Source of the DNA: Candidatus Omnitrophota bacterium | GTDB taxonomy: Bacteria; Omnitrophota; Gorgyraeia; Duberdicusellales; 4484-171 | Reading direction: 5' to 3' | Assembly: GCA_037146775.1 (NCBI GenBank) | Contig: JBAWWL010000008.1 | Coordinates: 6,160 to 70,159 of the forward strand | Length of the DNA: 64,000 nucleotides | Part shown: in pieces, positions 4,463-40,486 of the stretch | Position numbering within the stretch: position 1 is the stretch's first letter | Layout: every line of letters starts with the position of its first letter | Program-made: the position numbers and the translations under genes | Notes under the pieces: generated by a model | What the model was told of the DNA's origin: nothing | Database searches by the model: none | Seen by the model: only the letters and a program-made list of their open reading frames with translations

Positions 4463-4642
4463 AGCCTTCTTATAATACACTTGCTTTTATTCGTATTCTT
4501 TGTAAAATAAAATTTACACCTTTGAACCCCAACGAATCGCGGTTTACCGAAAAGCATGCATAAAATATGGGTTTTGGTTTTTTCAACGGGAAATATATAA
4601 GCCTTTTTAGCCGAGAGGACTGATATTGACGGGGAGGTCTAG

Positions 4643-4960: not shown

Positions 4961-4962
4961 TT

Positions 4963-6003: not shown

Positions 6004-6278
6004 TAGTTAAAAAAGTCACGCGCAAGGAGTGCGAATAATACAATATTAGTAAATACTTTCAAGAAGGTATTTCAGATTTTTTATGATGATTTAGGCATTA
6101 ACCGAAAAAATGCACTTGTCGCTCGGCATTTTTTCGGTATACCTCGACGTTATCTGAAATTCACCCCTAAATTACAAAGAAACTTAAGGGTAAATTTCAG
6201 CGTCGACCCTTCGGGCAAAAAATGTATTTAGCAAAATACATTTTTTTGGGTTAAGTATTTTCGATAAGAAGTAAAAAT
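6004..6278 (+). promoter_or_regulatory. Structured intergenic spacer inside V-ATPase operon with three perfect or near-perfect inverted repeats
   Basis: Three inverted repeats: ACCGAAAAAATGC...GCATTTTTTCGGT (13-bp stem); TCGACGTTATCTGAAATT...AATTTCAGCGTCGA; AAATGTATTT-agc-AAATACATTT. Confidence 0.5.
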
Positions 6279-24623: not shown

Positions 24624-24635
24624 TAATAAACAGAG

Positions 24636-24760
24636 GACAGATGACAGAAAACAGAAGACAGAGGAGATAAGGCAGATTTTTGACTTCTGACACCTATTTT
24701 CTGACTTCTGATATCTGACGTCTGACTTCTGACATCTGTTTTAATTTGGTAATCGGCCCC
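24636..24760. repeat. Inverted pair of heptanucleotide tandem arrays (RRCAGAR x5 then CTGACNT x8)
   Basis: aacagag gacagat gacagaa aacagaa gacagag ... ctgactt ctgacac ... ctgactt ctgatat ctgacgt ctgactt ctgacat. The two halves are reverse complements and can form a long imperfect hairpin just after the corA stop. Confidence 0.7.
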
Positions 24761-24873
24761 ATCGTCTTCCCGCCTGCACCCACGGTAGTGGGTTCGGCGG
24801 GATCCCGCAGAATCCGCGATAGCGGATGCATGCGGGAAGCTTAACGCTTACTGTTAGTAAGATTAAAATTATA

Positions 24874-25164
24874 ATGTGGTATGTTTATATCATCCAGAAT
24901 GATACAAACAAACGTTTTTATATAGGTTCAACCAATAATATAACCCGAAGGTTAGCCGAACATAATAGAAGCAAGAAGTGCTCTGTTACTCATTTCGGAA
25001 AATACTTTTTGATTCATCAAGAAGAATTTTCGAATATTAAAGAAGCAAGAGTGCGAGAACAGCAAATCAAATCGTATAAGGGCGGTAACGCATTCAAGAA
25101 ATTACTTCGCGAGCGCGCTGGCTTAAATATCATAAATACGGCCCCATCGTCTAGCTTGGTCTAG
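24874..25164 (+). CDS. GIY-YIG nuclease family small protein (YhbQ/UPF0213-like)
   Basis: YVYIIQNDTNKRFYIGSTNNITRRLAEHN is a GIY-YIG motif. The ORF tail overlaps the first 25 nt of the tRNA, so the true stop is uncertain. Confidence 0.65.
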   Translation: MWYVYIIQNDTNKRFYIGSTNNITRRLAEHNRSKKCSVTHFGKYFLIHQEEFSNIKEARVREQQIKSYKGGNAFKKLLRERAGLNIINTAPSSSLV

Positions 25165-25214
25165 GATGTCAGCTTCTCAAGCTGAACACACCGGTTCAAA
25201 TCCGGTTGGGGCTG
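25140..25214 (+). tRNA. tRNA-Glu (anticodon CUC)
   Basis: Manual fold. Acceptor GGCCCCA/TGGGGCT. D-stem GTCT/GGAT. Anticodon stem TCAGC/GCTGA with loop TTCTCAA. 4-nt variable loop. T-arm ACCGG-TTCAAAT-CCGGT. Discriminator G. Confidence 0.8.
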
Positions 25215-25224
25215 TTTTTATAAT

Positions 25225-25258
25225 TCAATCCCTCTACTTACATAGAGGGATTTTTTAT
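25225..25258 (+). terminator. Rho-independent terminator after tRNA-Glu
   Basis: tcCCTCTActtacaTAGAGGGa stem followed by TTTTTTATT. Confidence 0.65.
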
Positions 25259-25581
25259 TGATACTGATCACGGTAGTTTTGCATCTGTTTCCCCGTATAT
25301 TAACCAAAAGCTTTATGCTAAATCCCTTGAAGGTGAGATGTCTTGGAGTATAATATCACTCGAAAGGTCATTGAAAAATAATTGATTTAACTTACGATAT
25401 ATATAGATATAATATTTACACCCTGTGGAGGTTTGCTCTCGGCTCATACGAAAATACATAATTTTGCGGCGTACGATTCTTTTTTCTAAAGTTAAAGTTG
25501 CTGCGTTTTCCTTTGTTGTTTGTTTTAGGGAGCTGTAATATAGCTTAATTAGAAACAGAAAGCTAACGAAGGGGGGTGAGT

Positions 25582-26388
25582 ATGTTGGTAAGGATATTTA
25601 TTATTGGGGCGTTGTTGGCGGTGTTTCTGGTTACGGCTGCCGATAATGCGCCGGCTCAACAGCAGGCGCAGGGAGGGTCTCCGGCATTGGCAGAAGTCAG
25701 CCCGCCGGTTGTGCATCAGCGCGCTCTCAGTGTGCTCAAGCGTATGAGCGATACTCTTTCTCAGGCAAAGACAATCCGTTTTAGCGCCCGCAGCATAGTG
25801 CCCGTAAGAACTCCGTCAGGGATGTGGGCCAGTCTTTATGGGACTTCGCGGGTAGTCAAGGAAGGCGCCAGCAAGCTTTTTGCCCAAACGCGGGGAGATT
25901 TTTTTCCGTATGATTTCTATTTTAACGGCACGACGATAACGGCTTATTCGCCTACGAAGAATTTATATGCCGAGAGAAATGAGCCCGGCACGGTAAATAA
26001 CCTGATTGAAAATGCTTACAAAGAAGAGGGCAGATCATTTCCGTATGCTGATATACTTGTTGCCGAGCCTTACAGCGTTTTGACCGAAGGTTTGATAAAT
26101 GCCGTATACGTCGGACAGTCGGTGATTGATGGTGTTAAGACCGACCATCTGGCTTTTTCGAATAAGGGAGTCCAATGGCAGATATGGGTTGGCGTCCAAG
26201 ATCATTTGCCGCGTTTGGTGGATGCGACATATCTTGATGACGCCAGCGAGCCCAGCTATACGGTTGAGTTTTCTGACTGGAAACTTAACGAGCCTGTGGA
26301 GGCAGGGCAGTTTATTTTTAAAAATAAATCAAAGGCGGTAAAGGTCGAGTTCCGTAAGCCTGCTGCATTCTGGCCGCGGCAGTCTTGA
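25582..26388 (+). CDS. Secreted DUF2092-like (LolA-fold) protein
   Basis: Signal peptide. Pattern resembles the periplasmic DUF2092 family. Start moved to the ATG at 25582; the track start is GTG at 25576. Confidence 0.45.
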   Translation: MLVRIFIIGALLAVFLVTAADNAPAQQQAQGGSPALAEVSPPVVHQRALSVLKRMSDTLSQAKTIRFSARSIVPVRTPSGMWASLYGTSRVVKEGASKLFAQTRGDFFPYDFYFNGTTITAYSPTKNLYAERNEPGTVNNLIENAYKEEGRSFPYADILVAEPYSVLTEGLINAVYVGQSVIDGVKTDHLAFSNKGVQWQIWVGVQDHLPRLVDATYLDDASEPSYTVEFSDWKLNEPVEAGQFIFKNKSKAVKVEFRKPAAFWPRQS

Positions 26389-26426
26389 GAGAAGAAAAAG
26401 CGGAGATATTACCGGAGGAGTATGTT

Positions 26427-26942
26427 ATGAAAAAGATAAAAATAACGATTATAGCCGTTGCGGCTGTAGCAATGGTTTTCTTTGGCGCGCACGATGTGCT
26501 AGCGCGCGGTGGAGGTGGAGGGCACATGGGAGGCGGCGGCGGCGGTGGCTGGCACGGCGGAGGAGGCGGTGGCGGCGAGCACGGTGGCGGTGGCGGCGGG
26601 CACGGACAAGGCGGCCACAGGCATAATAACAATAATAATTATTACTATGGCGGCGGCGGGTGGGGTTACGGATTTGATGATGAAGCTGTAGTCAACGTGG
26701 ATTTGGATACTGATTCACGGCCGTCTACTGTTGTGGTGGAGCAGCCTACTACCGAAGTAGTCCAGCAGCCTGTACCAACAGCAGATGCGCCTGTCGGAGC
26801 TCAGGTGACAATGCTTCCTTCCGGAGCTGAGGGCAGGATTATCGGCGGCGCGCAATTTTATATAAGCGGTAATACCTGGTATAAGCCGTATTTCGGTGCA
26901 AGCGGCGTATATTATGAGGTTGTATCTCCTCCGAACACTTAG
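26427..26942 (+). CDS. Secreted Gly/His-rich low-complexity protein
   Basis: Signal peptide, then (G6-7-[HWE]H) x4, HRH, N5Y3, G4WGYG, and a structured-looking C-terminal domain. ATG at 26427 with GGAGGAG upstream. The track start at 26385 is TTG. Confidence 0.6.
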   Translation: MKKIKITIIAVAAVAMVFFGAHDVLARGGGGGHMGGGGGGGWHGGGGGGGEHGGGGGGHGQGGHRHNNNNNYYYGGGGWGYGFDDEAVVNVDLDTDSRPSTVVVEQPTTEVVQQPVPTADAPVGAQVTMLPSGAEGRIIGGAQFYISGNTWYKPYFGASGVYYEVVSPPNT

Positions 26943-27312
26943 AGGATGTTGCCTTTGTTTATAAGAAAATCAAATTCATGAATAATATCATTGCGCGTAT
27001 CAGGAAAGAGCTCTTAGAGGTGCTGCCGGCGTTTATCTTCTTTGTTGTTATGTTCCACATCCTTATGGTTACAAGGGCGCTGACGCTTGTAATGCTCCCT
27101 ATTAGCCAAGGAGGTTTTAAGTTAGAAACGGCTTTTTGTTAAGATGCGTCTAGCGCAAAAATATAACCGGTTTTTAGGTAAGGAAAACGAACTTTCAAAA
27201 ACCTTAGATAGTTAAAATAAACTAATAAAGGGTAGCAAATTATGAATGTCCGCCTCTAAAGGGTGGACATTCTACATCTATTTACCTGTAAAATAGTTAC
27301 ACAATTTCAGCT

Positions 27313-27560
27313 TCAGAAATGCCGGACAAAACGGATCCTCCTTCGCTAAAGCTTCGGAGGGCAGGCATCCTTTGGCGAGGGATTGCTTCTCAAATCAGCA
27401 ATTTTCTTAATAATTTCCATATTTACCATACAACTGTTACCTATATAATATAGAGAGGATACCTTGAGGCTAATGACCAAGCCCTGCCCTTAAATTCTCT
27501 CTTAGCCAAAAGAGAGAGGCGAATAGCCATGATTACTTAAGGTGATCATGGCATTTTTTA
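27313..27560 (+). repeat. Structured repeat element copy A (137-nt identical core, TATAAT box, two hairpins, T-run)
   Basis: Core 27322-27458 is identical to 28545-28681. Then CTCTCTTagccaaaAGAGAGAG and GCCATGAT...ATCATGGC hairpins followed by ATTTTTTAT. Confidence 0.7.
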
Positions 27561-27789
27561 TCTTTCGATTTTTCAAAGAGTTAGGGCGTTATTGCCAAAT
27601 CATTCTTCTGCGGAAGCTCATTACACGACACCTGTGTGTAAAATTTCTTACAAGTAAGCCAAAAATGACCGGACAAAACAATTCTATAAAGTATTTGAGT
27701 TAGATTAGCATAGCGATTCGTATTTATTTTTTCGCCTTGACATTATGTATCAAATATGATACATTTAATACGGAAATAAGAAAGAGCCG

Positions 27790-28161
27790 ATGTTGAATTA
27801 CTACGAAAGTTTTCTGGTTTATAAAGGCGAACATTACAGCATATATTTCCATGCTGAAAGTAAAAATTCGTCTATTGTGAATGAATATTTCGAACATTGT
27901 GATGATGCTACCCAGGCTAGCCTATTGTTTCTTGCGAAGGCCATGGCCGATACAGGCCGTATTTATGATGAAACTAAATTTCGTATTGAGGATAAGCAAA
28001 ATAAGATTTATTGTTTTAAGCCAAGGCAGGAACGTTTTTTCTGCTTCTTTTTCGTCGGCAAAAAGATAATAATTACTTCGGCTTATACGAAAAAAAAGCA
28101 GAAGCTTGATAAGCGAGAACTTAACAGAGCAATAGAAATTCGTAAACAATATTTCATCTAA
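27790..28161 (+). CDS. Type II toxin, RelE/ParE superfamily (HigB/Gp49-like)
   Basis: KIYCFKPRQERFFCFFFVGKKIIITSAYTKKKQKLDKRELNRAIEIRKQY matches the Gp49-like addiction-module killer consensus. 123 aa. Upstream of an XRE HTH gene. Confidence 0.7.
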   Translation: MLNYYESFLVYKGEHYSIYFHAESKNSSIVNEYFEHCDDATQASLLFLAKAMADTGRIYDETKFRIEDKQNKIYCFKPRQERFFCFFFVGKKIIITSAYTKKKQKLDKRELNRAIEIRKQYFI

Positions 28162-28178
28162 CACTAGGAGGTATGAAT

Positions 28179-28448
28179 ATGAAAAAGTCGATATTCGATA
28201 AAAAGATGGGAAACAAGAGATTTAAAGCTATATATGACGAAGTAGCTATTGAGATGGGTATAGGAGAGCAGATTGCAAAACTAAGGCACAAAGCAAAAAT
28301 GAGCCAATTGGAGCTAGCCAGAAAAGTGGATACCAACCGGACTACCATATCGCGTTATGAAAGTAGAATGTATAACCGCTACAATTTGAGCACGTTATTA
28401 AGAATCGGAAGAGCGCTACATAAGAAATTAAAGATATCTTATGTATAA
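28179..28448 (+). CDS. XRE-family HTH antitoxin (HigA-like)
   Basis: Cro/C1 HTH (MSQLELARKVDTNRTTISRYE). 18 nt after the toxin stop. AGGAGG 7 nt upstream of the ATG at 28179. Confidence 0.7.
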   Translation: MKKSIFDKKMGNKRFKAIYDEVAIEMGIGEQIAKLRHKAKMSQLELARKVDTNRTTISRYESRMYNRYNLSTLLRIGRALHKKLKISYV

Positions 28449-28535
28449 AATTTTCTTTATACCTAAAATGTCCAGCCAAAGCAAGACGGGCAAAATTTAA
28501 CTTTTAGTTACTCAAAGAGTTATACAATTTCCAGC

Positions 28536-28800
28536 TAAAAATGACCGGACAAAACGGATCCTCCTTCGCTAAAGCTTCGGAGGGCAGGCATCCTTTGGCG
28601 AGGGATTGCTTCTCAAATCAGCAATTTTCTTAATAATTTCCATATTTACCATACAACTGTTACCTATATAATATAGAGAGGTTATCTTAGGGGTAACAGC
28701 TAAGCCCTGCCATATAATTCTCTCTCTTGGCTAAAAGAGAGAGGTGAGTAGTCATGATTGTTAAATACGATCATGGCTATTTTTATGTCTTAGAAAAAAT
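28536..28800 (+). repeat. Structured repeat element copy B
   Basis: Same 137-nt core (28545-28681). Hairpins CTCTCTCTTggctaaaAGAGAGAG and CATGATtgttaaatacgATCATG, then TATTTTTAT. Confidence 0.7.
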
Positions 28801-29026
28801 AATGAGGTCAGCCCTTGAAATGCGAAGTGTTTTAGCTCATTAGTTCTTAAGCTCATGAGTTTACGCGAGCTTTAGCTTGCAGTGTCAGGTGCCTGCGGCG
28901 GAAAAGCTGAAGAATCAAACTAACTTCTACCTTGACCACTTCACCTCCCGGCAGTAAAATACCCGCAACTTTCAACCAAATAACCGTTTCCATTATGGAG
29001 GTTGAAAATAGTTTTAATTAGTGCAT

Positions 29027-29980
29027 ATGAAAAAATATTTTCTTGCTGCATTTGTATGTGTTAACCTATTATCCGGTTTGACGTTTAACGCAATTGCTGC
29101 TCAATCTGAACAGAATTGGGAATTCAAGCTTGACTCCAAATATTTTTTCGCAAGCCATACCTCTTATCAATTCGGCAACCCATATATCGGTAGCGATATG
29201 CCATTAAGTCGGCTGGAATTTCCTATCAATAATCTTTGGATGGGCGCAGGCTTGAGGCGTAATTTTGCGCGCTATTCCATAGGGATTAACGCTTTGTCCA
29301 GTGCAATGCGTAATACCCGTGGTCGAATGAAGGATTCAGACTGGGAAAATACGGATGATCTTAGCGAAAGAACCATTTTTTCTACTTCAGCCAACCGCAT
29401 GAATTACGGCATTATAGCCGGCGGCGATGTTGATTTAAAAGTTTCTGATTGGCTTAATTTTGCGCCAAGCTTAGATATCCGGCCGCTTGTCGGTTTTCAG
29501 TGGCAGAAATTTTCTTTTACGGTACATGACGGCGTTCAGCACTATTATAGCCCGTCTGCACCTGATGACCCGCTTCCAGGAAATCTTTTAGATTTTGAGC
29601 AGGTTTATTGGCAGTATTTTGCAGGCTTTCGCAGCTCCTGGGATATGGGTCGGCCGTTTAAACTGCCTCCGCTTAAATTACTCACCGAATTTCACGGAGG
29701 CTATGTCACAGGCTACAATAAAGATCATCATTTACTTAAAGGTGACCGCTATACCTTTGAAACGACTGACGGATATTGTTTCTACGCTTCTTTAGGCTTA
29801 GAAGCGCAATTAACTAAAAATATCAGCTTAGGCACCGGCATTGATTATCTGATGATTAGGACAACCGGTAAGCATAATTGGCGGTATAATGCAGTTGGGG
29901 TAGATTCAATATGGAATAATGGAGTTAAAGTCTACTCAGACCAGATAGGCATTAACTTGAATTTGACATATAGATTCTAG
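29027..29980 (+). CDS. Outer-membrane beta-barrel protein, hypothetical
   Basis: Signal peptide. Alternating amphipathic beta-strand pattern. C-terminal ...NLNLTYRF ending in Phe, an OMP sorting signal. Confidence 0.5.
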   Translation: MKKYFLAAFVCVNLLSGLTFNAIAAQSEQNWEFKLDSKYFFASHTSYQFGNPYIGSDMPLSRLEFPINNLWMGAGLRRNFARYSIGINALSSAMRNTRGRMKDSDWENTDDLSERTIFSTSANRMNYGIIAGGDVDLKVSDWLNFAPSLDIRPLVGFQWQKFSFTVHDGVQHYYSPSAPDDPLPGNLLDFEQVYWQYFAGFRSSWDMGRPFKLPPLKLLTEFHGGYVTGYNKDHHLLKGDRYTFETTDGYCFYASLGLEAQLTKNISLGTGIDYLMIRTTGKHNWRYNAVGVDSIWNNGVKVYSDQIGINLNLTYRF

Positions 29981-30185
29981 TTCTATGCTCGCTCGTAAAA
30001 AATTAATTGAGGGGGAATTCTGGGGACACAATACTTAATTATTTGAAAATAATCCTCACCTTTGACGGGATAGAAATAATGGGGTCAGCCTTGAGTATTG
30101 GAAACTTATTGTAATTCCGGCACACACTGCCTGGTGCAAAAATTATACACATTTTTAACCACCACTTACACGAAGAATTACCTCG

Positions 30186-30340
30186 CGAATAGCCAAATTT
30201 TCTTATTAATCTCCATATTGACCATATAACTGTTACCTATATAAATAAGAGAGGATACCTTAGGGCCAATGGCTAAGCCCTGTTTTTTAACCCTTCGTAA
30301 CTATATTTGTTGCAAAGGGTTTTTTATTTAGACTAAAATT
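30186..30340 (+). repeat. Structured repeat element copy C (3' part only, diverged) with terminator-like hairpin
   Basis: About 85% match to the 3' half of the core (ttttcttattaatctccatattgaccatataactgttacctatataaataagagaggatacctta...). Then AACCCTT...AAGGGTT followed by TTTTTATTT. Confidence 0.55.
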
Positions 30341-30444
30341 AAATTTCTTACGCTCTTAAAGAGCGAGTGGTATAATTTTTATATGTATAGGGTAGATAAG
30401 GCAATGATGAGTGTGTATATGAATTGTGAGATGAAGGTGTAGAA

Positions 30445-30903
30445 GTGGATAGAAAGAAAATTATTTTTTCTTTTCTATATTTTTTTGTTTTCTGTATTTT
30501 AGCCTCCGCTCAGGACAGCGAAGACCTCAAATACAAAATAACCCCGACTATAAATAAAGAGTCTCCCTCCGGTGTTTATATCCCGAAAGATTTAGAAGAG
30601 TGTTTCAAAGAATTGAAAACTATGCTTCAGCCATCTTTAGTGGCAGAAATGAAAGCGAAGCCGGAAAAAGAGATGATTGGGTATCATCATGGACTAGGTA
30701 TGTGGATAAGAAATAACTGGGGGTTGTGGTCGGATTCCAGATTAAAAAAATATTTCAATAACTTAGGTATCCGGCATCCTGACGATATGTCTAGCATTAT
30801 TCTTAATTCTTTTTGGCGACATCTTCACAATCAACTTCTTGAGCTGGATAGGCAGATAAAATATTATCAAGAATATTGGGAAAACGTAAAGAAACAAAAA
30901 TAA
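30445..30903 (+). CDS. Secreted hypothetical protein
   Basis: GTG start. Signal peptide. 152 aa. No recognisable motif. Confidence 0.45.
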   Translation: MDRKKIIFSFLYFFVFCILASAQDSEDLKYKITPTINKESPSGVYIPKDLEECFKELKTMLQPSLVAEMKAKPEKEMIGYHHGLGMWIRNNWGLWSDSRLKKYFNNLGIRHPDDMSSIILNSFWRHLHNQLLELDRQIKYYQEYWENVKKQK

Positions 30904-30908
30904 AAATT

Positions 30909-31301
30909 ATGCGGCGCGCAGCGATTACGTTTATGGTTTTCAGCGTATTGATTTTTATTTCTTGCTCTCGCATGAAAAAAAATGATACGTATGGTTGTGA
31001 AGATATGGCAAAGGAAATCAAAGGTTTTATGGAAAATTGTCAGTCTTGCAGGGCCGATGACGAATGCTTTGTGGACAAGGAATTGAGCGGTTACTGTCCT
31101 TTTGGGTGTTGGTATATACGTAGCCACAGCTATGATAACAGCGAAAAAATTAAGTCAATACAAAGGAAGATGGAAGCATATATTGACAATTGCGGTCAAT
31201 GTAAATATGATTGTGCTATGTACCCAGCGCAAAATGAAATAGGTTGTAAAAAAGGAAAGTGCGTTGATTTGAGATATTTTTCAGAAAAAAATAAACTGTA
31301 A
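30909..31301 (+). CDS. Cysteine-rich lipoprotein, hypothetical
   Basis: Lipobox LIFISC. 12 Cys in CxxC/CxC pairs (CQSCRADDEC, CPFGC, CGQCKYDC, CKKGKC). Confidence 0.5.
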   Translation: MRRAAITFMVFSVLIFISCSRMKKNDTYGCEDMAKEIKGFMENCQSCRADDECFVDKELSGYCPFGCWYIRSHSYDNSEKIKSIQRKMEAYIDNCGQCKYDCAMYPAQNEIGCKKGKCVDLRYFSEKNKL

Positions 31302-31394
31302 GTGCTTAGCTTTGCCTGTCGATAAGCCGCCGATCTTATCGGGATGCCGGCGTTTGGGGTTGGATAGTCCGTGTTGTTATATGTAGAATAAAGG

Positions 31395-32444
31395 ATGCTT
31401 TTGGATATGAAGAAAAAAATGCTCGGATCAGCGATTGTGTTTATGGCGATTCTTTTTATTTCGCCTTTTGTGTTTGCTGACGCCATAAAACTTAAAAACG
31501 GCAAATTGGTTGAAGGTACGATTGTAGAAAAAAATGGCCAGTCTGTTAAGGTTGATCTTTCGGGAATCCTTTTAACGTATTATTTAGATGAGATTGAGAG
31601 CGTAAATGGCGAAAAAGTTAAGAAAGCCGAGATTAAGAACGAATCAGGTAAAGTAATAAGTAAAAGCGAAGTGCAGAAGAGTATTCCCGGTACGGATCAA
31701 TGGAACAGATTTCTAAAATTTACGGAACAGTTTTATTATTTAGATAAGCAAAATTTTAATAATATTTCCTGTGATATAAGCACTGCGTTTATTAATAATT
31801 TGTTGTCTACCGTTGAAACTCAACTGAAAAGTTTTGAAAATAACTTAACGGTTGAAAATAGCATAGATACATTCCGGTTAAAGTTTAATAAGGAAAAAGG
31901 GCTTACTTTTAATCTTCCAAAGTTTGATATCGAGATCATTTCCGAACAAGGGATGACCGATCCCGTCAGGGTGAAAAGCGGAATAAGCACGATGAAGAAT
32001 GGATTTGATAACGCGGTTAAGGGGGCTACCGATATGATTCGGGGAATATTTGAGAGCTATATATCACCCAAAAGAAACGAATATGAAATCATTGAAATTT
32101 CTGAAAGCGAAAAAGGTACAAAATTAATATACAAACATAAAGGATATACCGTAACGGATTTATATAGCGGAACTCATTGTGAATCCACGCAGACCAATGG
32201 TATGGTGACGATTCATGCAACCGAGGAATATAAAAAAGTCGACGGGAAGCTGTTGCTGGACAAGGGATCTGTGACTATGGATCAAGGGGTACAAAGTATG
32301 AGTTCCGACATAACGGTGGAATATCAACAAATAGGCTCAATATATTTTCCGTCAAAAATAAAAAACGATACTAAGATTTCCATGGGAGATATAAAAAGCG
32401 AAATACCCATTGAGGTAATTTTTAAAAATACAAAAGTTGATTAA
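31395..32444 (+). CDS. Secreted hypothetical protein with N-terminal 'LKNGK-GTI' domain
   Basis: Signal peptide, then FADAIKLKNGKLVEGTIVEK...SGILLTYYLDEIE, which is paralogous to the N-terminus of the ORF at 57217. An alternative start is at 31407. Confidence 0.55.
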   Translation: MLLDMKKKMLGSAIVFMAILFISPFVFADAIKLKNGKLVEGTIVEKNGQSVKVDLSGILLTYYLDEIESVNGEKVKKAEIKNESGKVISKSEVQKSIPGTDQWNRFLKFTEQFYYLDKQNFNNISCDISTAFINNLLSTVETQLKSFENNLTVENSIDTFRLKFNKEKGLTFNLPKFDIEIISEQGMTDPVRVKSGISTMKNGFDNAVKGATDMIRGIFESYISPKRNEYEIIEISESEKGTKLIYKHKGYTVTDLYSGTHCESTQTNGMVTIHATEEYKKVDGKLLLDKGSVTMDQGVQSMSSDITVEYQQIGSIYFPSKIKNDTKISMGDIKSEIPIEVIFKNTKVD

Positions 32445-32553
32445 CGAATTATTCAAACGAGATAATTTCTTTTCTATCCGCCGATAGCCGGACAATTGAC
32501 TCATCGTTTTGGCCCGCATTAATTTCTCTTTGCTAAACCTCCTACCATTTTAA

Positions 32554-33555
32554 ATGGCGAGTGGTATAATTAAAAAAATGAATAGTACGGTGAAGGGGAA
32601 ATTTTTTCTGGTTATTATTCTGATTGTAGCTTTGCTGCTGCCAAGAATAGCCGATTGTCAGATAAAGAAATACCGTGGCAAAAAGATACTTTATGTAAAT
32701 TCGTATCATAAGGGTTATTATTGGAGCGATGGTGAACAGCAAGGTGCCCAGAACGTTTTGGCTCCGAGTGGCGTAGAATTGAGAATAGCATACATGGATG
32801 CCAAAAATAATCCTTCCGAAGAATTCAATAAACAAGCAGGCCTAAAAGTAAAAAAGTTAATAGAGGAGTTTGAACCCGACGTTTTAATTGTCGCCGACGA
32901 TAATGCGTTTAAATATATAGTTATGCCTTATTATCGCGATGCGGATTTGCCGGTTGTATTTTGCGGCATTAATTGGGATATATCAATTTACGGCGCTCCG
33001 TACAAAAATACGACAGGCATGCTGGAGGTTGGACTTATTGAACAGGTTTATGAGCATTTGAGAAAGTTTGCTAAAGGTAACAGGATAGGTTTTCTCAGTC
33101 CTGATGTGTTAAGCGAGCGCAGGAATGGTGAATATTTTGCTCAACATATCCCGGGAGGTTTTACCTATAAAGAATATGTACCAGATTTTGAAACATGGAA
33201 AAGGAAATATCTGGAAATCCAGGACAAGGTCGATATGCTTATTTTTTCTACTCCCATTGGGGTTAAAGATTGGGATTGGGATAAGGCCGAGCAGTTTGTT
33301 TTAGAAAACATTAAAGTGCCGATAGAAGGCGATATCGGCATAGCCTTGTTTGAGATAGCGAAGATTCCCGAAGAACAAGGAGAATATGTCGCTCGAACGG
33401 CTTTGAAGATACTCGATGGTGAAAAACCGGCCAATATTCCTATTGTTAAAAACAAGAAAGGGAGCCTATGTTTAAATTTGAAAGTTGCCGAAAAATTGGG
33501 TGTTATTTTTTCTCCGGGACTCCTGAGGAGCGCGGCAAAGATTGTTCGTAAGTAA
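32554..33555 (+). CDS. Periplasmic solute-binding-like protein (ABC substrate-binding family-like), hypothetical
   Basis: Signal/TM anchor. Alpha/beta pattern resembling the type-I periplasmic-binding fold. Weak assignment. Confidence 0.3.
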   Translation: MASGIIKKMNSTVKGKFFLVIILIVALLLPRIADCQIKKYRGKKILYVNSYHKGYYWSDGEQQGAQNVLAPSGVELRIAYMDAKNNPSEEFNKQAGLKVKKLIEEFEPDVLIVADDNAFKYIVMPYYRDADLPVVFCGINWDISIYGAPYKNTTGMLEVGLIEQVYEHLRKFAKGNRIGFLSPDVLSERRNGEYFAQHIPGGFTYKEYVPDFETWKRKYLEIQDKVDMLIFSTPIGVKDWDWDKAEQFVLENIKVPIEGDIGIALFEIAKIPEEQGEYVARTALKILDGEKPANIPIVKNKKGSLCLNLKVAEKLGVIFSPGLLRSAAKIVRK

Positions 33556-33625
33556 AAATAATTATTTTAAATTTTGATTGGTAAAACTTGTGTTGGTATC
33601 TGTTAACTAATAATAGGGGGTGACT

Positions 33626-34492
33626 ATGGATAATTTAAATAAACTGCAAAAGCTGACCTTGGGGTTCATTATCGCCTTGGTGTGGTTTTTGATAATGTGT
33701 TTTGTGGTGATATTCGTTGGGAATATCTTTAAATGGTCTTTCTTGTCGGAAACCTTTAGCGTAGGTTTCTTTTCCGCTTTCGGCGTAGGCTTGGGGGCGC
33801 TTATTGCATTGGCGATTCTAAACATAACGCTTACTTTTAATTCGATTTCTCATTCTTTATTCAGAATGGCCGCAAACAGCGGTTCGGTAATGAGTGTTCA
33901 AGACAAACAAAAGTCTGCGAAGCTCTTTAAGGCGAGTATATTCTTGGCTATCGCAAGCATTTTGGGTATCGTGCTTTTTTTATGGTGCGGAGAAGTGAGC
34001 GTTAATCGTCACAAAATTAAAGTTTCTTTAAACAGCCTGGAGGCAGTTGCCAAATCGCCCCTTGCGGATAAATTAGTCGATCTTATCAATAAAGACGCTA
34101 CAGTCAAAGAAGTTTTAGACGTTCGAGATGCCATGCGGCGTAATTTGGAAGAAAAAGGAGGGTTGTCACTTTTGGTTCCGATCAATAAAATTGATTCGGG
34201 AACATTTTATGAGGTAACTCCCTGGTGGTATCAAGGCGAAGAAAAGGAAAGCAAACCAATCTCTCAGGCAAATTTACGTGTTTTCGTGCCTTACACGGAA
34301 GAATCGATAAAATTTAACGAACTCATTAAAAATAAAAAACCTTTCTATTCTATTAACCGGTATCAATTAAGAGTTTTTTATCCCATTGTGGTTAGCAACA
34401 AAGTTGTGTGTATAGTAATGTTAGATACCAGTCGTCAAGCCAGCGACCAATATCTATGGAAACGTTCTTCCTCCCAGGCTATAATAGAGTAA
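33626..34492 (+). CDS. Membrane protein, hypothetical (3-4 TM plus soluble C-domain)
   Basis: Hydrophobic helices in the N-terminal half. No recognisable motif. Confidence 0.45.
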   Translation: MDNLNKLQKLTLGFIIALVWFLIMCFVVIFVGNIFKWSFLSETFSVGFFSAFGVGLGALIALAILNITLTFNSISHSLFRMAANSGSVMSVQDKQKSAKLFKASIFLAIASILGIVLFLWCGEVSVNRHKIKVSLNSLEAVAKSPLADKLVDLINKDATVKEVLDVRDAMRRNLEEKGGLSLLVPINKIDSGTFYEVTPWWYQGEEKESKPISQANLRVFVPYTEESIKFNELIKNKKPFYSINRYQLRVFYPIVVSNKVVCIVMLDTSRQASDQYLWKRSSSQAIIE

Positions 34493-34601
34493 TAGTTTAT
34501 CGTGCAGGCATTTTTTTGATTTGTACACAATGATTTAAGCCAAGGTAGATAGCGGATTGTAAAAAGCATATAAGGCAAAATTTTTCAAGAAAGGAGTTGC
34601 T

Positions 34602-35252
34602 ATGAAAGTGAAGTCTGTGTTTATTATTGTTTGTTTGGCAATGAGTTTGTTCATTTGTGCGCAATGTATCTATGCCCAAGATCCTAAAACCATTAAGCTA
34701 CCGGCTCCGCAGATGCAAGGCGGCAAACCTCTTATGGAGGCTTTGGCACAGAGGAAAAGCGTTCGTGAATTTAGCTCTAAGGAGTTATCTTTGCAGGAGC
34801 TTTCGAATCTTTTGTGGGCGGCCTATGGGATTAACAGGCCTGAAACAGGCGGGCGCACTGCGCCATCAGCAAGGAATATGCAGGAAATCGATGTGTATAT
34901 AATCAAGGCTGATGGTTTATATCTTTATGATGCAAAAGAAAATGCACTGGTGTTAATTATCGCAGAGGATCTACGTGCTTTAACCGGCAAACAAGATTTT
35001 GTTGCCAAGGCTGCGGTCAATCTTATTTTTGTGGCAGATTTTTCCAAAATGAAGGGCCAGGCCAGCGATATGGAATTTTATTCGGCAGTCGACACCGGTT
35101 ATGTCAGCGAAAATGTGTATCTTTATTGTGCTTCCGGTGGTCTCGTAACAGTTGTGCGGGGCTTAGTGGATAGGCCGTCGTTAGCGAAGGCAATGAAGTT
35201 GCGGCCTGAACAAAAAATAATTCTCGCGCAAACCGTGGGCTATCCTAATTGA
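34602..35252 (+). CDS. Secreted SagB/ThcOx-type nitroreductase-family protein
   Basis: Signal peptide. R-K-S-x-R-E-F, LSNLLWAAYGINR and TAPSARN motifs of the SagB-type dehydrogenase/nitroreductase fold. Confidence 0.65.
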   Translation: MKVKSVFIIVCLAMSLFICAQCIYAQDPKTIKLPAPQMQGGKPLMEALAQRKSVREFSSKELSLQELSNLLWAAYGINRPETGGRTAPSARNMQEIDVYIIKADGLYLYDAKENALVLIIAEDLRALTGKQDFVAKAAVNLIFVADFSKMKGQASDMEFYSAVDTGYVSENVYLYCASGGLVTVVRGLVDRPSLAKAMKLRPEQKIILAQTVGYPN

Positions 35253-35638
35253 GTTCACAATATAACTATAATATTTTCATAATTCTAAAGTTTTTATAAA
35301 AAAAGGAGGGGGCATGAGGAAAAACAGGCGGTTATTTTGTTGATACTCTCTGTCCTTCCTTTAAGCTTGTGGTGTATGCATATGATTGGGAGATTAATAC
35401 TAAAACAAGAGAAAAAATAGAATTAGGCGAATAGCAGAGCAGGTTTTAAAGCTAATTGTATTTCAAAGATAAGCATGCGTCCCCGGAGTTGCTGCCAACT
35501 TTACGAGGATGGCGCCGTGAACCGTTCGTTGGTATGAATAAGGTCGGTTGTGTCGGTTTTGGATGGCATTAGAGTTTTTGATTAAGAAAAGTAAATTGTG
35601 TTATTTTAACAACCTGAACCCTGAAAGGGAGAAAGCTG

Positions 35639-36616
35639 ATGATAAAAAAATTACGAAAGAAATTTTTACGTTCTTTTCGTAAGCTATTGGGTACGGAGCA
35701 GATTTCACAGCAGCAATATCGACAGGAACAGCTGCAGCACCAACAGGAAGAATTGCGGCAACAATTACAGCTATTACAACTGCAACTGTTGCTTTCGCTG
35801 GGAAATAGCCTGAAGTATTCTTCGGTAGACCAAAAAAAGATCAAAGAATCAATTACATACAAACGTTGTGCCGAACTGGTTTCTCTGTTTGCGCCTATGA
35901 ACATAGAGGGCGCAAAGTATGTTCGTGTCGGAGGAAACCATGACGGGGGATATGTGATGCTGGATGGCTTTCGGGACGGGTTGGTCGAGGCAGCTTACAG
36001 CTTTGGTATCGGTGATAACGTTTCCTGGGATGAAGCCATTGCTTGTCGCGGTATTAATGTTTTTATGTACGATCATACGATTCAACGATTACCGAAAAAT
36101 CACCCAAATTTTCATTATTTTAAAACAGGAATTACCGGATACGAGAAGGGGGTTGGTTTAAAAACATTAAGTGAGCTTGTCGCGAACAATAATCACACCG
36201 CATGTAAAAACTTGATACTAAAAATGGATATCGAAGGGTATGAATGGGATGTGTTCAGAGAAATCCCCTCAAGCGTGATTAGCCAGTTTTCCCAGTTTGT
36301 TGTAGAGTTCCATGATTTGAGGTCGGCTATTTATGGTTCTGGGTATGATATGGTAGCAGAGGTGCTTAAAAAGATCAACCAAACGCATCAGAGTGTTCAT
36401 GTTCACGCAAACAGTTTTAGCGCGCCTCTGTGGATCGGCGAGTTTGTTCTTCCTACGGTTATCGAGGTAACTTTTGTGCGGCGTGCCGACTTTAAAGATA
36501 AGTTTATTGCGAACACGCGGCAATTCCCTACAGAGATCGACCAATCGTCTTGCGCGGATTTGTTTGATATATATCTGAACGGTTTTTATGATTGCAGCAG
36601 AACAGCCGAGAAATAA
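35639..36616 (+). CDS. FkbM-family methyltransferase with N-terminal Q-rich coiled coil
   Basis: Core KMDIEGYEWDV matches the Methyltransf_21 (FkbM) family. Residues 20-55 are Gln/Leu repeats. Confidence 0.65.
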   Translation: MIKKLRKKFLRSFRKLLGTEQISQQQYRQEQLQHQQEELRQQLQLLQLQLLLSLGNSLKYSSVDQKKIKESITYKRCAELVSLFAPMNIEGAKYVRVGGNHDGGYVMLDGFRDGLVEAAYSFGIGDNVSWDEAIACRGINVFMYDHTIQRLPKNHPNFHYFKTGITGYEKGVGLKTLSELVANNNHTACKNLILKMDIEGYEWDVFREIPSSVISQFSQFVVEFHDLRSAIYGSGYDMVAEVLKKINQTHQSVHVHANSFSAPLWIGEFVLPTVIEVTFVRRADFKDKFIANTRQFPTEIDQSSCADLFDIYLNGFYDCSRTAEK

Positions 36617-36722
36617 ATGCCATCCTTGGCGTTTTTAGCGATGAGCGGCCCCGTAAGGCTATGGGCGAAGTAATAATACTCGCAAACTAAATCCTGGCAG
36701 GTGTGTAGTTACCGGTAATCAT

Positions 36723-37742
36723 ATGCTAAAGCGTGCAGGAATAAAAATAATTTTTTTTAGTATACTTATGATGTTTTCTTCGGGATCTGCTATGTGCGAA
36801 GAAAATATCCATACGTACATAATGAGCGGCAATGTGAGCAAGGTAAAAATGCTTTTAGATGAAAATCCACAACTTGTGCATCAGGTGGATGCCGGTTTTA
36901 CTCCTCTTATCCGAGCGGTAGCGCGCGGCCAGAAAGCAATAGTTGAACTGCTTATTGATAGGGGAGCAAAGATTAATGAACAGGTTGGAGAATCCGAAGC
37001 ATACTTTGTAGAATCTTCGCCATTACAGGCGGCAGTGTTTTACGGTTATAAAGATATCGCGGAGCTTTTGATAAGTAAAGGCGCGGATGTCAGTTTTAGA
37101 GATACCATAGGTAAAACTCCTGTATATGCGGCACTGAACGGGATTGGAGATAAAAGAGAAATACTTGCGTTGCTTATTTCGAAAGGGGCAAGCGTAAATG
37201 GTAAAATCCAGTCGGAAGGTACATGCCCAAAGGGTGCGCTGTGTGATGGTCTGCGCCACGGAGGTTGGACGCCGCTGCATCTTGCGGTATCTCGGAACGA
37301 CAAGGAAAGCGTTGCGTTACTTATTTCCGCCGGCGCTCATATTAATGAAAAAGACGAAGCAGGTGATACCCCGCTCTATCTATCTCGCAGCTGGCCGGAA
37401 GGAAAAGAAGTGACCGAGCTTCTGATAGAGAAGGGGGCTGGCGTTGACGTAAAGAATAATTCCGGCGAAACGCCCTTACTTTTTGCGTTAATACAAAATG
37501 ATTATTCCAAGGCGCGTTTTTTTATTGAAAAAGGTGCAGATGTTAATATAAAAACCCAGGGTGATCTCAGCCCACTTGCAATAGTTTTTTCTGCCGGTTA
37601 TGATTTAGCATCAGCAAGCTACAAACGAAGCCCTCAGAATATAGCGATGATCAAATTACTTATTGCCAAAGGTGCCGATACTAATATTTCTAATGATGGC
37701 GATCCTGCCTGGGAACGTCTCATCGGCAAACATAGCCGATGA
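36723..37742 (+). CDS. Ankyrin-repeat protein with signal peptide
   Basis: N-terminal signal peptide. At least 7 ankyrin repeats (TPL..A...G......LL..GA..N). Confidence 0.7.
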   Translation: MLKRAGIKIIFFSILMMFSSGSAMCEENIHTYIMSGNVSKVKMLLDENPQLVHQVDAGFTPLIRAVARGQKAIVELLIDRGAKINEQVGESEAYFVESSPLQAAVFYGYKDIAELLISKGADVSFRDTIGKTPVYAALNGIGDKREILALLISKGASVNGKIQSEGTCPKGALCDGLRHGGWTPLHLAVSRNDKESVALLISAGAHINEKDEAGDTPLYLSRSWPEGKEVTELLIEKGAGVDVKNNSGETPLLFALIQNDYSKARFFIEKGADVNIKTQGDLSPLAIVFSAGYDLASASYKRSPQNIAMIKLLIAKGADTNISNDGDPAWERLIGKHSR

Positions 37743-37837
37743 TGTATAACCGGGGAAATATCGTTTTCGATCGAAACAGATGTGCGGATGGCAACGTATA
37801 AAATATGTTTTTAAATAATAATAAAAAAAGGATGTAA

Positions 37838-38470
37838 ATGGGATTGGTATCGCTTCTTTTTAGTAACCCGATATTGTTTCTTATATTAGCCGTGGTACTT
37901 ATTTATTCCGTTATCATTCATGAAGTCGCGCATGGGTGGGTGGCTCATCTTTTTGGCGACGAAACAGCTAAATATTCCGGCAGATTAACGCTTAACCCCA
38001 TATCGCATATTGACCCAGTAGGTACGCTGATGCTTTTTATCGTAGGTTTTGGCTGGGCAAAGCCGGTGCCGATAAGTTATCAGCATTTTAAAAACAGGCG
38101 TTTAGGGTTTTTTAGTGTCGCTTTGGCAGGATGCGCAGCCAATATAATTATCGCAATCATCGCATTGTTTTTATTACAATTTAAGATTATGAGCACAAAT
38201 CCGCTTTTTTCAATTATGCTGCCGATTATCATAAAAATAAATATTATCCTTGGCGCTTTTAATTTGATTCCGATTCCGCCTCTCGATGGCTCAAAGATCC
38301 TTATGAGTTTCCTGCCGCATCGTGCGCAAGAGAGTCTATCAAAAATAGAGCCTTATGGATTCTTTATCTTAGCGCTATTATTATATACCGGATTACTGGA
38401 CCCGGTGATATCGTTCATGCAGAACATAATCTATATTTTAATCGCTGTGCTGTTCGGCTATTTCAGATGA
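37838..38470 (+). CDS. Site-2 protease family (M50) membrane metalloprotease
   Basis: HEVAHG (HExxH) inside a TM helix. Second-site LDG motif. 210 aa. Confidence 0.7.
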   Translation: MGLVSLLFSNPILFLILAVVLIYSVIIHEVAHGWVAHLFGDETAKYSGRLTLNPISHIDPVGTLMLFIVGFGWAKPVPISYQHFKNRRLGFFSVALAGCAANIIIAIIALFLLQFKIMSTNPLFSIMLPIIIKINIILGAFNLIPIPPLDGSKILMSFLPHRAQESLSKIEPYGFFILALLLYTGLLDPVISFMQNIIYILIAVLFGYFR

Positions 38471-38556
38471 TGCGTAATAAAGAATAGAGGGTTTTTGCCT
38501 TGGTACCAATTAGTTTTCCGGGAATGTGTTGATTCAAACAATATTCCCTGATAAAT

Positions 38557-38597
38557 AAAAAACGCCGAGGATTCGAAAACCCTCGGCGTTAAGGATT
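38557..38597 (-). terminator. Rho-independent terminator (minus strand)
   Basis: Minus-strand read: CGCCGAGGgttttcgaatCCTCGGCG followed by TTTTTTATTTAT. Downstream of the only minus-strand gene. Confidence 0.6.
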
Positions 38598-38667
38598 GAA
38601 AGGAGGAATTTTTTTTAAGTCTACCGGCCCATTGCCGGAAGGCCATTCCTCCGTTTAGGCTGTTTTT

Positions 38668-39048
38668 TTAAGAGCCAGCGATATTTGTCAGCAATACCCA
38701 CCCGGTCATACCTTCATATCCACCGGTCAGAATCTTTACTTTCGCGGTTTTTTCCCAAAAATTTGTTTCCAGCACTCTTGCCAGGGTGCAATTTTCTACT
38801 TCGAAACCGTCGCGAGAAAGCATTAATACCTGGTAACTTGGTTCTGCTTCCGCTATCCGGCAAGAAGTAAGATGGTTAAACATCTTTTTATTAATACCGA
38901 TGTAAACCGGTTGTTTTCCCTGGCGAGTTTTAAGGGTCACTACTTTACCGTTGAGATCAAGCTCGTCACAGAAGCTTTGTATAGGACATAAAAAAGATAC
39001 TACCAAGAGGAACACTCCCACTAAAGCTACGGATTTTCTTCTCATTTT
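38668..39048 (-). CDS. Secreted hypothetical protein (only minus-strand gene)
   Basis: Internal ATG at 39048 with a strong RBS AAGGAGGGGG. Signal peptide MRRKSVALVGVFLLVVSFL. The ORF track extends it to 39180. Confidence 0.5.
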   Translation of the reverse strand, partial: KMRRKSVALVGVFLLVVSFLCPIQSFCDELDLNGKVVTLKTRQGKQPVYIGINKKMFNHLTSCRIAEAEPSYQVLMLSRDGFEVENCTLARVLETNFWEKTAKVKILTGGYEGMTGWVLLTNIAGS

Positions 39049-39269
39049 ATTACCCCCTCCTTTAGAATAAAGCCTAATACAACACCTTAATAATAACATA
39101 TCTCCTTCGGCAAAAACCATAGAAAACAACCCTTTCGTGTAAGCGTTTTCAGCCGTGATCGGATACGCCATGATCTTCAAGAGTCCAAAATTCTAATAGT
39201 GATGTTATATTTGTTGCCTGTGAGCTTTTTTTCTTTGATTTTTCAATGAGTATGATATAATTTTACCCT

Positions 39270-40052
39270 ATGTTAGCTAAGCGTATTATCCCTTGCTTGG
39301 ATATTAATAAGGGCAGGGTAGTAAAAGGGGTAAATTTCGTTCAATTAAAAGACGCCGGTGATCCCATTAAAAATGCCCAGTTTTATGAACGGGAAGGCGC
39401 TGATGAGCTTGTATTTTTAGATATTACTGCCAGCTTTGAACAGCGCTCTACTACTGTTGATTTGGTACGTAAGGTCGCGCAGGTGGTATTCATGCCCTTT
39501 ACGGTAGGGGGCGGGATACGCAGTGTTGAGGACATTAGAGCGCTTTTGCGTGCCGGAGCGGATAAGGTTTCGCTTAATACCATAGCGGTAAATAACCCTC
39601 CTATTGTACGTAAAGCAAGCGGTATTTTTGGCAGTCAATGCATCGTAGTTGCTATTGATGCCAAGCGCATGCATAGCGCTAAGCGTAGGGGCAAAAGTGG
39701 AAGGCAATGGGAAGTGTATATTAATGGCGGGAGAACCCCTACTGGTTTGAATGCGTTAACGTGGGCTAAACGGGTAGAATCGTTAGGTGCGGGAGAAATA
39801 CTGCTTACAAGTATGGATTATGATGGCACGAAAGATGGATATGATATTGAGTTGACCAAAGAAATTACCGCACACGTGAGAATTCCGGTGATTGCTTCCG
39901 GAGGCGCCGGACGGATTTCTCATTTCTATGATGTATTTCATGACACAGGGGTGTCTGCGGCACTCGCCGCCTCTATCTTTCATTATCGGGAAATTCGAAT
40001 AAAGGAAATCAAAGAACAATTAAAAGCGAAAGGAGTTGAGGTGCGTACATGA
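39270..40052 (+). CDS. hisF: Imidazole glycerol phosphate synthase cyclase subunit
   Basis: RIIPCLDI...KGVNF N-terminus. (beta/alpha)8 HisF signature. 260 aa. Confidence 0.9.
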
Positions 40053-40486
40053 AGAAACCAGAGACCAGAAACCAGAGGACAGAAGTCAGAAGACGGAAGA
40101 CAGAGGTCAGAGGTCAGAAGTCAGAAGACAGAAGACAGAGGACAGAGGACAGAAGGCAGAGGGGAAAGATAATAGTTCCGAAGTTAAAATTTGACGAAAA
40201 GGGGCTTATCCCTGCAATCGTTCAAGATGTAAAAAACGGCGATGTACTTATGATCGCTTATATGAATGAAGAGTCTCTGCGTATCACCTTGAAAGAAAAA
40301 AGGACTTGTTTTTATTCTCGTTCGCGCCAAACCCTGTGGAGAAAAGGCGATACCAGCGGGCATATCCAGAAAGTGAAGGCTGTGTGCTATGATTGTGATT
40401 GCGACGCGCTTCTGATTAAAGTTGAGCAAACAGGCGTGGCGTGTCACACTGGAGAGAGCAGCTGTTTTTATAGAAAAATTATTTGA
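40049..40486 (+). CDS. hisI: Phosphoribosyl-AMP cyclohydrolase with N-terminal heptamer-repeat-encoded extension
   Basis: HisI core [15 protein letters not shown]...C-x-x-C metal site. The first ~35 codons are a 15 x 7-nt repeat array encoding [21 protein letters not shown]... The true start could be downstream and non-canonical. Confidence 0.75.
40055..40159 (+). repeat. Heptanucleotide tandem array (15 units; aaaccag/aggacag/aagtcag/aggtcag...), 105 nt in-frame
   Basis: Direct reading. Same repeat family as 24636-24760 and 60612-60671. Confidence 0.75.

Follow-up and report, generated by a model that had tools for sequence, protein, structure and literature searches.

A probable gene-turnover hotspot without mobility proteins between tRNA-Glu and hisF in the Omnitrophota, with a possible nuclease cassette at its border

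Introduction

Across 80 species, 27% of the hotspots of horizontal gene transfer (HGT) were found to be without any mobility protein (integrases, transposases), 29% contained tRNA or tmRNA genes, and the core genes flanking hotspots recombined more often (Oliveira, Touchon, Cury & Rocha, 2017; PMC5635113). A comparable arrangement is described here for Candidatus Omnitrophota, in a stretch of 64,000 nt (contig JBAWWL010000008.1, positions 6,160 to 70,159 of the forward strand; assembly GCA_037146775.1), called the window below and numbered from its first base. Between a tRNA-Glu gene (anticodon CTC) and hisF it carries some 14 kb of mostly exported proteins that are replaced by other genes in related genomes. 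This interval is likely to be a long-standing gene-turnover hotspot in a clade of Omnitrophota, that is, a flexible island without mobility proteins. The likeness to the mobility-free HGT hotspots lies in the use of one spot between conserved core genes, in lineage-specific genes whose content varies among relatives, in the tRNA border, in the lack of an integrase or transposase, and in cargo of the envelope or otherwise exposed. The scale is different: here genomes from several genera and families of an uncultured phylum are compared, in the earlier survey strains of one species (PMC5635113).

Elements that integrate at tRNA genes by means of a tyrosine integrase, namely genomic islands, integrative and conjugative or mobilizable elements (ICEs, IMEs) and prophages, also have features in common with the interval: the position at a tRNA 3' end, atypical composition and an addiction module. 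Here, however, there is no integrase, no duplicated tRNA 3' segment and no transfer or virion gene, and the composition is mosaic.

The second subject is a small gene for a GIY-YIG nuclease, which runs into the 5' end of the same tRNA-Glu. Repetitive extragenic palindromic (REP) elements are short GC-rich palindromes dispersed in intergenic DNA, copies of which flank the gene of a REP-associated tyrosine transposase (RAYT; HUH/Y1). The nuclease gene resembles that system in that GC palindromes are dispersed and that copies of them flank a small nuclease gene; the enzyme is nevertheless a GIY-YIG nuclease and not an HUH/Y1 transposase, and the likeness rests on sequence layout, not on hairpin movement. 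The other described counterpart is SegB of phage T4, a free-standing GIY-YIG homing endonuclease encoded in a tRNA gene region (PMC2330249). As there, a GIY-YIG gene is found among or next to tRNA genes and is polymorphic, present or absent, at an orthologous site. In contrast to SegB, the proteins considered here have only 79–96 aa, a bare Slx1/UPF0213-type core without a DNA-binding domain; the genes are chromosomal (Omnitrophota, Patescibacteria, others), with no relative found in IMG/VR; and they always abut a tRNA 5' end, accompanied by partial copies of the tRNA in which GC hairpins are found.

Variable gene content between tRNA-Glu and hisF

The window has a single tRNA gene, tRNA-Glu(CTC), which anchors the interval on the left. 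It lies on the + strand, at 25139–25215 according to ARAGORN and at 25140–25214 according to the Rfam tRNA model (55.7 bits). The right anchor, hisF (39270–40052, + strand), starts at 39270, a distance of 14,054 bp. An initial annotation, made from the sequence, had reported recognizable housekeeping genes on both sides of about 14 kb of unfamiliar proteins, and Pfam and NCBIfam matches bear this out: V-type ATPase, Pta, AckA, DJ-1, PanD, Def, TrxB and CorA are encoded on the left, and HisF, HisI, TrpE, S16, SecDF and Mfd on the right. The closest relatives of this hisF are all from Candidatus Omnitrophota.

Gene order was compared at 160 hisF loci, 80 from species-representative genomes and 80 from Joint Genome Institute (JGI) metagenomes, using tblastn with all window proteins (loci and contigs from other genomes are given L numbers below). 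The block downstream of hisF, with hisI, trpE, rpsP, secDF and mfd, keeps its synteny in most of these loci, and a subset of them also retains the upstream block. The proteins encoded between 25.5 and 37.7 kb had no homologue near hisF in the 160 related loci, nor in further tRNA-Glu loci, by tblastn.

In eight non-redundant genomes, the window included, tRNA-Glu(CTC) precedes hisF in the same orientation. The gap between them measures 0.8, 1.3, 2.5, 3.7, 3.9, 4.4, 5.2 or 14.05 kb; the window has the largest version seen, with a variable part of about 13.3 kb. The left block (pta to tRNA-Glu) and the right block (hisF to mfd) are collinear in L005, L010, L011, L013, L163, L166 and L169, and nine different cargos of 0.8–14 kb occupy the spot between tRNA-Glu and hisF. 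Whether hisF can directly follow tRNA-Glu had been proposed as a check; in L013 just 800 bp, with one VIT1-like gene, separate the two. VIT1 is accompanied by other genes in L010, L169 and L005. The cargo of L011 consists of a cupin regulator, an M20 peptidase and two acetate-kinase paralogues, that of L007 of a P-type ATPase, and that of L166 of EamA and a 635-aa methyltransferase. L163, a closer relative with twelve upstream genes (10 kb) collinear with the window, has NTP_transf_2, GT2, PMT_2 and YfhO after the tRNA, in an interval of 6.3 kb or more. Differences are also seen at short range: the flanks of L005 and L169 are 91–93% identical, and a 1.8-kb gene for a GspE/PilB-like ATPase directly 3' of tRNA-Glu distinguishes them (L005:5615–7399 vs. 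L169:10342–10356). The reading of this stretch as an accessory region, which had been offered with a comparison of relatives as its proposed check, is supported by the different cargo found at the same place.

Both borders can be placed closely. On the left, nucleotide homology between the window and L163 ends at 25219, 4–5 nt past the tRNA 3' end. On the right, the closest relative found is L081, a 2.5-kb fragment with a hisF 92% identical to that of the window (the other nearest genomes reach 73% or less). It aligns, at ~81% nucleotide identity, from window position 38553 onward, and upstream of this breakpoint encodes an unrelated secreted protein. The variable part is accordingly about 25220–38552. 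Placing the right border at ~38553 leaves outside it the gene for a small secreted protein on the minus strand (38668–39045), because this gene is kept next to hisF and hence is core by synteny: homologues lie directly upstream of hisF in L004, L006, L012, L081 (81%), L087, L089, L093 and L094. It is, as first described, the single minus-strand gene of the region; its inclusion among the accessory genes does not hold, since homologues adjoin hisF in these eight loci. The border gene inside the breakpoint, for an M50 (site-2 protease family) membrane peptidase (37838–38470, + strand; PF02163), is ambiguous as to core or accessory status. A homologue 64–66% identical is found upstream of hisF in L006, L012 and L086, and it is absent at that place in L081.

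Composition, export bias and the age of the region

By GC content, judged against 55 flank genes, the cargo falls into at least three classes. GC is high at 25.6–26.9 kb (0.50–0.54, z +2.5 to +4) and low at 27.8–32.4 kb, the omptin gene excepted (0.34–0.36, z −2.5 to −3); at 34.6–38.5 kb it is typical (z near 0), which is the native composition. The search for k-mer deviation that had been suggested gave a positive result, with tetranucleotide deviation raised over 24–34 kb and a peak of z=3.4 at 30–33 kb, in the low-GC segment, whose core at 30445–32444 has a GC of 0.35 (z about −2.6). A second deviant stretch in the window, at 4000–8000, has a GC of 0.38 and tetranucleotide z values of at most 1.75; it covers the membrane subunits encoded in a V/A-type ATPase operon and probably reflects membrane-protein bias rather than foreign origin.

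The richness in signal-peptide proteins remarked on in the initial annotation can be put in numbers. A hydrophobic N-terminus (signal peptide, lipobox or transmembrane helix) is found in 11 of 14 island proteins, compared with 13 of 55 flank proteins (Fisher p=2.5e-4).

Ten of the cargo proteins were looked up among about 15 billion sequences. Each is alone in its 90% cluster, except that the cluster of the toxin additionally holds a one-residue-longer call of the same gene; they were seen only in two assemblies of one population and in one Logan contig. Such isolation indicates a poorly sampled lineage, and it favors the view that the region is a vertically inherited, lineage-specific block that looks accessory since the nearest genomes are too distant. 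The native composition of 34.6–38.5 kb agrees with this, as does the conservation of the M50 and minus-strand genes here in some relatives. Vertical descent of the whole block is nonetheless unlikely. L081, the only close relative, already differs directly upstream of 38553; L005 and L169, similar as they are, differ at the same spot; the homology with L163 stops precisely at the tRNA end after 10 kb of collinear upstream sequence; and GC z values range from −3 to +4 within the region.

Mobility signals

The initial annotation had noted the absence of an integrase and of a duplicated tRNA 3' end. The first observation stands: no recombinase or transposase domain was found in the main ORFs (Pfam, NCBIfam) or in six frames of the 3.5 kb of intergenic DNA (Pfam), and the other eight cargos at the tRNA-Glu/hisF site likewise have no integrase. 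As to the second, an 18-mer from the tRNA 3' end matches only the tRNA itself at ≤3 mismatches, and a repeat search gave no pair of attachment (att) sites; the tRNA 5' end is, however, duplicated upstream, so that the two copies flank the GIY-YIG gene considered below. No DNA similarity to phages, plasmids or IMG/VR sequences was found (blastn of 25215–33200 for the phage and plasmid collections), and there are no phage, conjugation or plasmid Pfam domains among the window proteins. What the region shares with a tRNA-linked integrase island is thus its adjacency to a tRNA 3' end, and it has no recombinase, far-border repeat or phage and plasmid genes.

These results bear on the possibility that the region is the decayed remnant of one integrase-mobilized island (a genomic island, IME or prophage) at the 3' end of tRNA-Glu, from which integrase and att sites were lost. 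A left border exactly at the tRNA 3' end, atypical composition over 24–34 kb and a toxin–antitoxin pair of a phage-derived family (Gp49) would all fit such an origin. It is quite improbable all the same, given ORFs and intergenic frames free of recombinase domains, an unrepeated tRNA 3' end, no phage, plasmid or IMG/VR similarity, and eight other cargos at the site without an integrase; the presence of at least three compositional classes also speaks against a single origin.

Several other identities were considered and set aside. For an integron or a cluster of attC sites lacking an integron integrase (CALIN), no attC-like sites and no IntI were found; a scan of both strands with the attC pattern gave one candidate, inside coding sequence and with 11/25 arm positions complementary, and control regions gave the same number. 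An anti-phage defense island was rejected, as PADLOC returned only generic HTH and ankyrin-repeat matches, and a phage or plasmid origin was rejected for want of DNA matches. The SagB-like enzyme, methyltransferase and M50 peptidase might recall a cluster for a ribosomally synthesized and post-translationally modified peptide (RiPP), but the nitroreductase fails to reach the SagB cutoff and carries a signal peptide, and there is no precursor and no cyclodehydratase. Searches of Rfam, at gathering as well as permissive thresholds, gave tRNA as the only known RNA family; matches to heptamer hairpins were due to chance.

Cargo genes

The variable region (25220–38552, bounded by the synteny breakpoints) holds 14 genes, all on the + strand, and three copies of a repeat. 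Every gene named in the initial annotation was found again with Pfam and NCBIfam; the M50 peptidase is an addition to that list. The region opens with the high-GC segment, which encodes a secreted, LolA-like DUF2092 protein (25582–26388; GC 0.50, z +2.5) and a secreted Gly/His-rich protein with a weakly DUF6515-like C-terminus (26427–26942; GC 0.54, z +4.0), both identified with Pfam. The 850-bp gap after the latter contains a 54-aa ORF (26978–27142) with a transmembrane-like segment and no family match, which may be a gene fragment.

A predicted toxin–antitoxin pair follows, with a GC of 0.34–0.36 in both genes: a Gp49/RelE-like toxin (27790–28161; PF05973, 32.8 bits against a cutoff of 23.9) and an HTH_3 antitoxin (28179–28448; PF01381, 33.4 bits against a cutoff of 23, and NCBIfam antitoxin families). 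The genes are adjacent, toxin first and 17 nt apart by the database gene calls, which is the type II HigB/HigA-like pattern. HigB/HigA modules have the same succession of a Gp49/RelE-fold toxin and an HTH_3 antitoxin; the pair in the window differs in being bracketed by 270-nt direct repeats.

Next is an omptin-family outer-membrane beta-barrel protein (29027–29980; PF01278, E=1.9e-12). Relatives that share 79% and 60% identity with it have unrelated genes around them, and the similarity stops at the gene ends. At the DNA level, 29107–29983 is 84% identical to L177:2078–2954, which is located between two radical-SAM genes on an unrelated contig. This pattern suggests transfer or shuffling of a single gene, that is, movement gene by gene rather than as a conserved island.

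The low-GC core encodes a secreted DUF6794 protein (30445–30903; Pfam), a Cys-rich lipoprotein (30909–31301) and a secreted 345-aa protein of unknown family (31407–32444). In an exhaustive HMMER search the nearest relative of the last, besides itself, was 39% identical, and its domain of ~250 residues belongs to a family of about 130 members at E<1e-10. The AlphaFold (AF2) model has a predicted local distance difference test score (pLDDT) of 89 overall and 97 in the C-terminal domain, and comprises a small Sm/SH3-like N-terminal barrel and a large antiparallel beta-sheet domain; Foldseek gave no PDB match below E=0.03.

Up to the M50 gene, the remaining cargo consists of an ABC_sub_bind-like periplasmic protein (32554–33555), a 288-aa membrane protein of unknown family (33626–34492), a nitroreductase with a signal peptide, SagB-like but below the curated cutoff (34602–35252), an FkbM-family methyltransferase (35639–36616) and an ankyrin-repeat protein with a signal peptide (36723–37742).

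Internal repeats

The interspersed repeat elements mentioned in the initial annotation proved to be three copies of one unit, all on the + strand inside the region, with none elsewhere in the 64 kb. The layout is that of promoter-like −35 and −10 sequences, a hairpin-rich unit of roughly 90–110 nt, and a terminator. Copy 1 (27291–27561) has the promoter-like sequence TTTACC-16-TATAAT, then hairpins, then the terminator; copy 2 (28514–28786) is 88% identical to it, and both fold far better than shuffled controls (z=−4.75 and −5.0, respectively). Copy 3 (30196–30335), upstream of the DUF6794 gene, is limited to an 87-nt core (30196–30282) with a terminator of its own. This core is common to all three copies, with TTTACC or TTGACC, a spacing of 16 nt and TATAAT or TATAAA, followed by a short hairpin. 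The units might encode small RNAs or represent duplicated leader sequences. The 270-nt direct repeats on either side of the toxin–antitoxin pair are copies 1 and 2, and recombination between them could excise it as a cassette.

An independent Logan contig ends within copy 2, at 28652. As the source is moreover a metagenome-assembled genome (MAG), an assembly or binning chimera has to be considered, in which foreign DNA was joined to the tRNA and hisF flanks. That is hardly conceivable, because identical genes occur in the same order in two NCBI assemblies, one of them a 153,777-bp contig (consecutive proteins MEI8349965–79); the Logan contig spans the right junction at 100% identity; and neither the strand bias nor the repeat family is interrupted along the region. 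A 21-kb stretch of CAZTHQ010000038.1 (114 kb, from the MAG GCA_964613555.1) is 100% identical to the window.

Proposed gain and loss of genes at the probable hotspot

If the tRNA-Glu–hisF interval is a turnover hotspot, its genes would have entered piecemeal rather than as one element. A likely route would be recombination anchored in the conserved flanks, together with illegitimate joins next to the tRNA terminator, and the three promoter-plus-hairpin repeats would offer internal homology for the gain and loss of cassettes. The HigB/HigA-like pair may help to retain the island. In function, the island would supply lineage-specific surface and secreted equipment, such as the LolA-like DUF2092 protein, the omptin-type barrel, lipoproteins, the periplasmic binding-protein homologue, the secreted ankyrin protein and the exported nitroreductase.

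Some points weigh against this interpretation. The main reservation is that comparison within the species or genus comes down to one 2.5-kb fragment (L081), so that turnover is seen between genomes and not within a lineage. For single genes, the case for a foreign origin is built on composition and context rather than on phylogeny. The right third of the region (34.6–38.5 kb), native in composition and with its M50 gene present there in some relatives, may in part be old and vertically inherited. Finally, the cargo genes all run in the direction of the flanking operons, as genes do elsewhere in this genome, which fits long residence.

A GIY-YIG gene at the 5' end of tRNA-Glu

Immediately before the left border there is a gene for a 96-aa GIY-YIG nuclease, Slx1/UPF0213-like (24874–25164, + strand; PF01541, E=1.5e-14), whose last 25 nt overlap the intact tRNA-Glu. 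The closest solved relatives of the protein are UPF0213 (1ywl) and SLX1; it has 111 homologues, and a protein of the same sequence has been annotated in a MAG of the Omnitrophota. Upstream of the gene, a pseudo-5' part of tRNA-Glu can be read directly from the sequence at 24755–24842 (+ strand). It begins with GGCCCCATCGTCT, tRNA positions 1–13, at 24755–24767, continues with two GC-rich hairpins of 35 nt (24768–24802 and 24803–24837), and ends in the D-loop remnant AGCTT; its RNA fold has a z of −5.0.

The cassette is present at the orthologous locus in L163 (9883–10341), in L166 (9888–10450, with two pseudo-copies), in L169 (9897–10341) and, with a truncated gene, in L007 (2633–2950), and is absent from this locus in L005, L010, L011 and L013. 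The filled site of L169 and the empty one of L005, with flanks 91–93% identical, differ by a 369-bp insertion after tRNA position 13. The insertion ends with a second copy of the 13-mer and lies downstream of a conserved TTGACA-17-TAAAAT promoter. The hairpin stems show compensatory changes: 92.6% of alignment cells are paired, with 4 pairs changed on both sides. These values were reached in 0/500 shuffles, and slid controls pair in 32–49% of cells.

In the alignment of the family, the Y, G, R, H and E columns are conserved, members have 79–96 aa and end at KGGNAFKKL, and no extra DNA-binding domain is seen. The gene thus has the GIY-YIG core and the presence/absence polymorphism of a homing endonuclease but not the DNA-binding domain that gives specificity. 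Two intron readings were discarded. For a group I intron, only about 30 nt lie outside the ORF and a complete tRNA follows; and the hairpins are not tRNA introns, as they occur either in truncated copies or in copies where a tRNA arm has been replaced, not interrupted.

Tandem heptamer repeats (CAGAAGA/CAGAGGT) also occur in the window, at 24628–24742, 40053–40174 and 60609–60666. Between corA and the cassette, a direct heptamer array and its complement make up a long hairpin; L163 (9760–9880) has the same structure with a different heptamer. The array in hisI is translated into an Arg/Glu/Lys-rich N-terminal extension.

Related genes at other tRNAs

Homologues of the GIY-YIG protein, at 47–54% identity, abut other tRNA genes in other phyla: tRNA-Gly(CCC) in L176 (2950–3320; Gottesmanbacteria) and in L173 (3040–3480), a tRNA-Pro copy in L181 (2390–2820) and tRNA-Tyr in L182 (2420–3010). 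All four loci have extra partial tRNA copies in which the D-loop, D-arm or anticodon arm bears a CCCCGCC-N3-GGCGGGG hairpin. Among the 111 proteins of the family, at least 21 have a C-terminal tail, such as AGIVHW, AAVVQR or TAPSSSLV, that corresponds to a translated tRNA 5' end. The hairpin motif is found within 200 nt of the GIY-YIG gene in every locus with such a gene, and is also found, often paired, in other intergenic regions.

Single or paired YCCCGCC-loop-GGCGGGR hairpins are scattered in REP-like fashion through Omnitrophota intergenic DNA, for example at L066:12603–12645, L049:18397–18430, L155:1367–1410 and L006:16527–16541. In L128 (1042–1058 and 1290–1310), a more distant GIY-YIG gene lies between the halves of a single palindrome.

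In the literature searched, no description of an association between GIY-YIG genes and tRNA 5' ends was found. The left border of the interval may be occupied by a selfish cassette of a class not yet described, a reading that has something in its favor but is held only tentatively. A minimal Slx1-like GIY-YIG gene would colonize tRNA 5' ends, regenerate an intact tRNA, use the promoter of that tRNA and leave behind a remnant broken by hairpins. The hosts would be tRNA-Glu in the Omnitrophota, tRNA-Gly and tRNA-Tyr in Patescibacteria-like genomes and tRNA-Pro in another lineage. Part of the tRNA would be duplicated by the cassette, so that an intact copy is regenerated, and REP-like YCCCGCC...GGCGGGR hairpins would break up the leftover piece.

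In its strongest version, this proposal has the nuclease contribute to the hotspot as well. That the nuclease actually causes it, with breaks at or near tRNA-Glu stimulating recombination and DNA capture, seems rather improbable. The nuclease gene does abut the tRNA in the window, L163, L166 and L169, and an intact copy is found at each of the two largest intervals (the window, and L163 with 6.3 kb or more). On the other hand, L005, L010, L011 and L013, without the nuclease, still vary in cargo over 0.8–5.2 kb, the substrate of the enzyme is putative, and the sample is far too small for a correlation. Because lineages without the cassette also vary, a contribution of the nuclease to the hotspot is conjectural.

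Implications

If confirmed, the border cassette would represent a novel strategy by which a minimal nuclease gene parasitizes tRNA genes across phyla without destroying them, and would offer a tractable system that ties structure-specific nucleases to palindromic repeats and to genome plasticity beside tRNA genes. The island itself likely documents a mobility-gene-free turnover hotspot in the Omnitrophota, for which MAGs are almost the only source of knowledge. With it come about a dozen exported proteins that are candidates for lineage-specific roles at the cell surface or in host interaction; for one of these the fold is predicted with confidence and has no match among solved structures.

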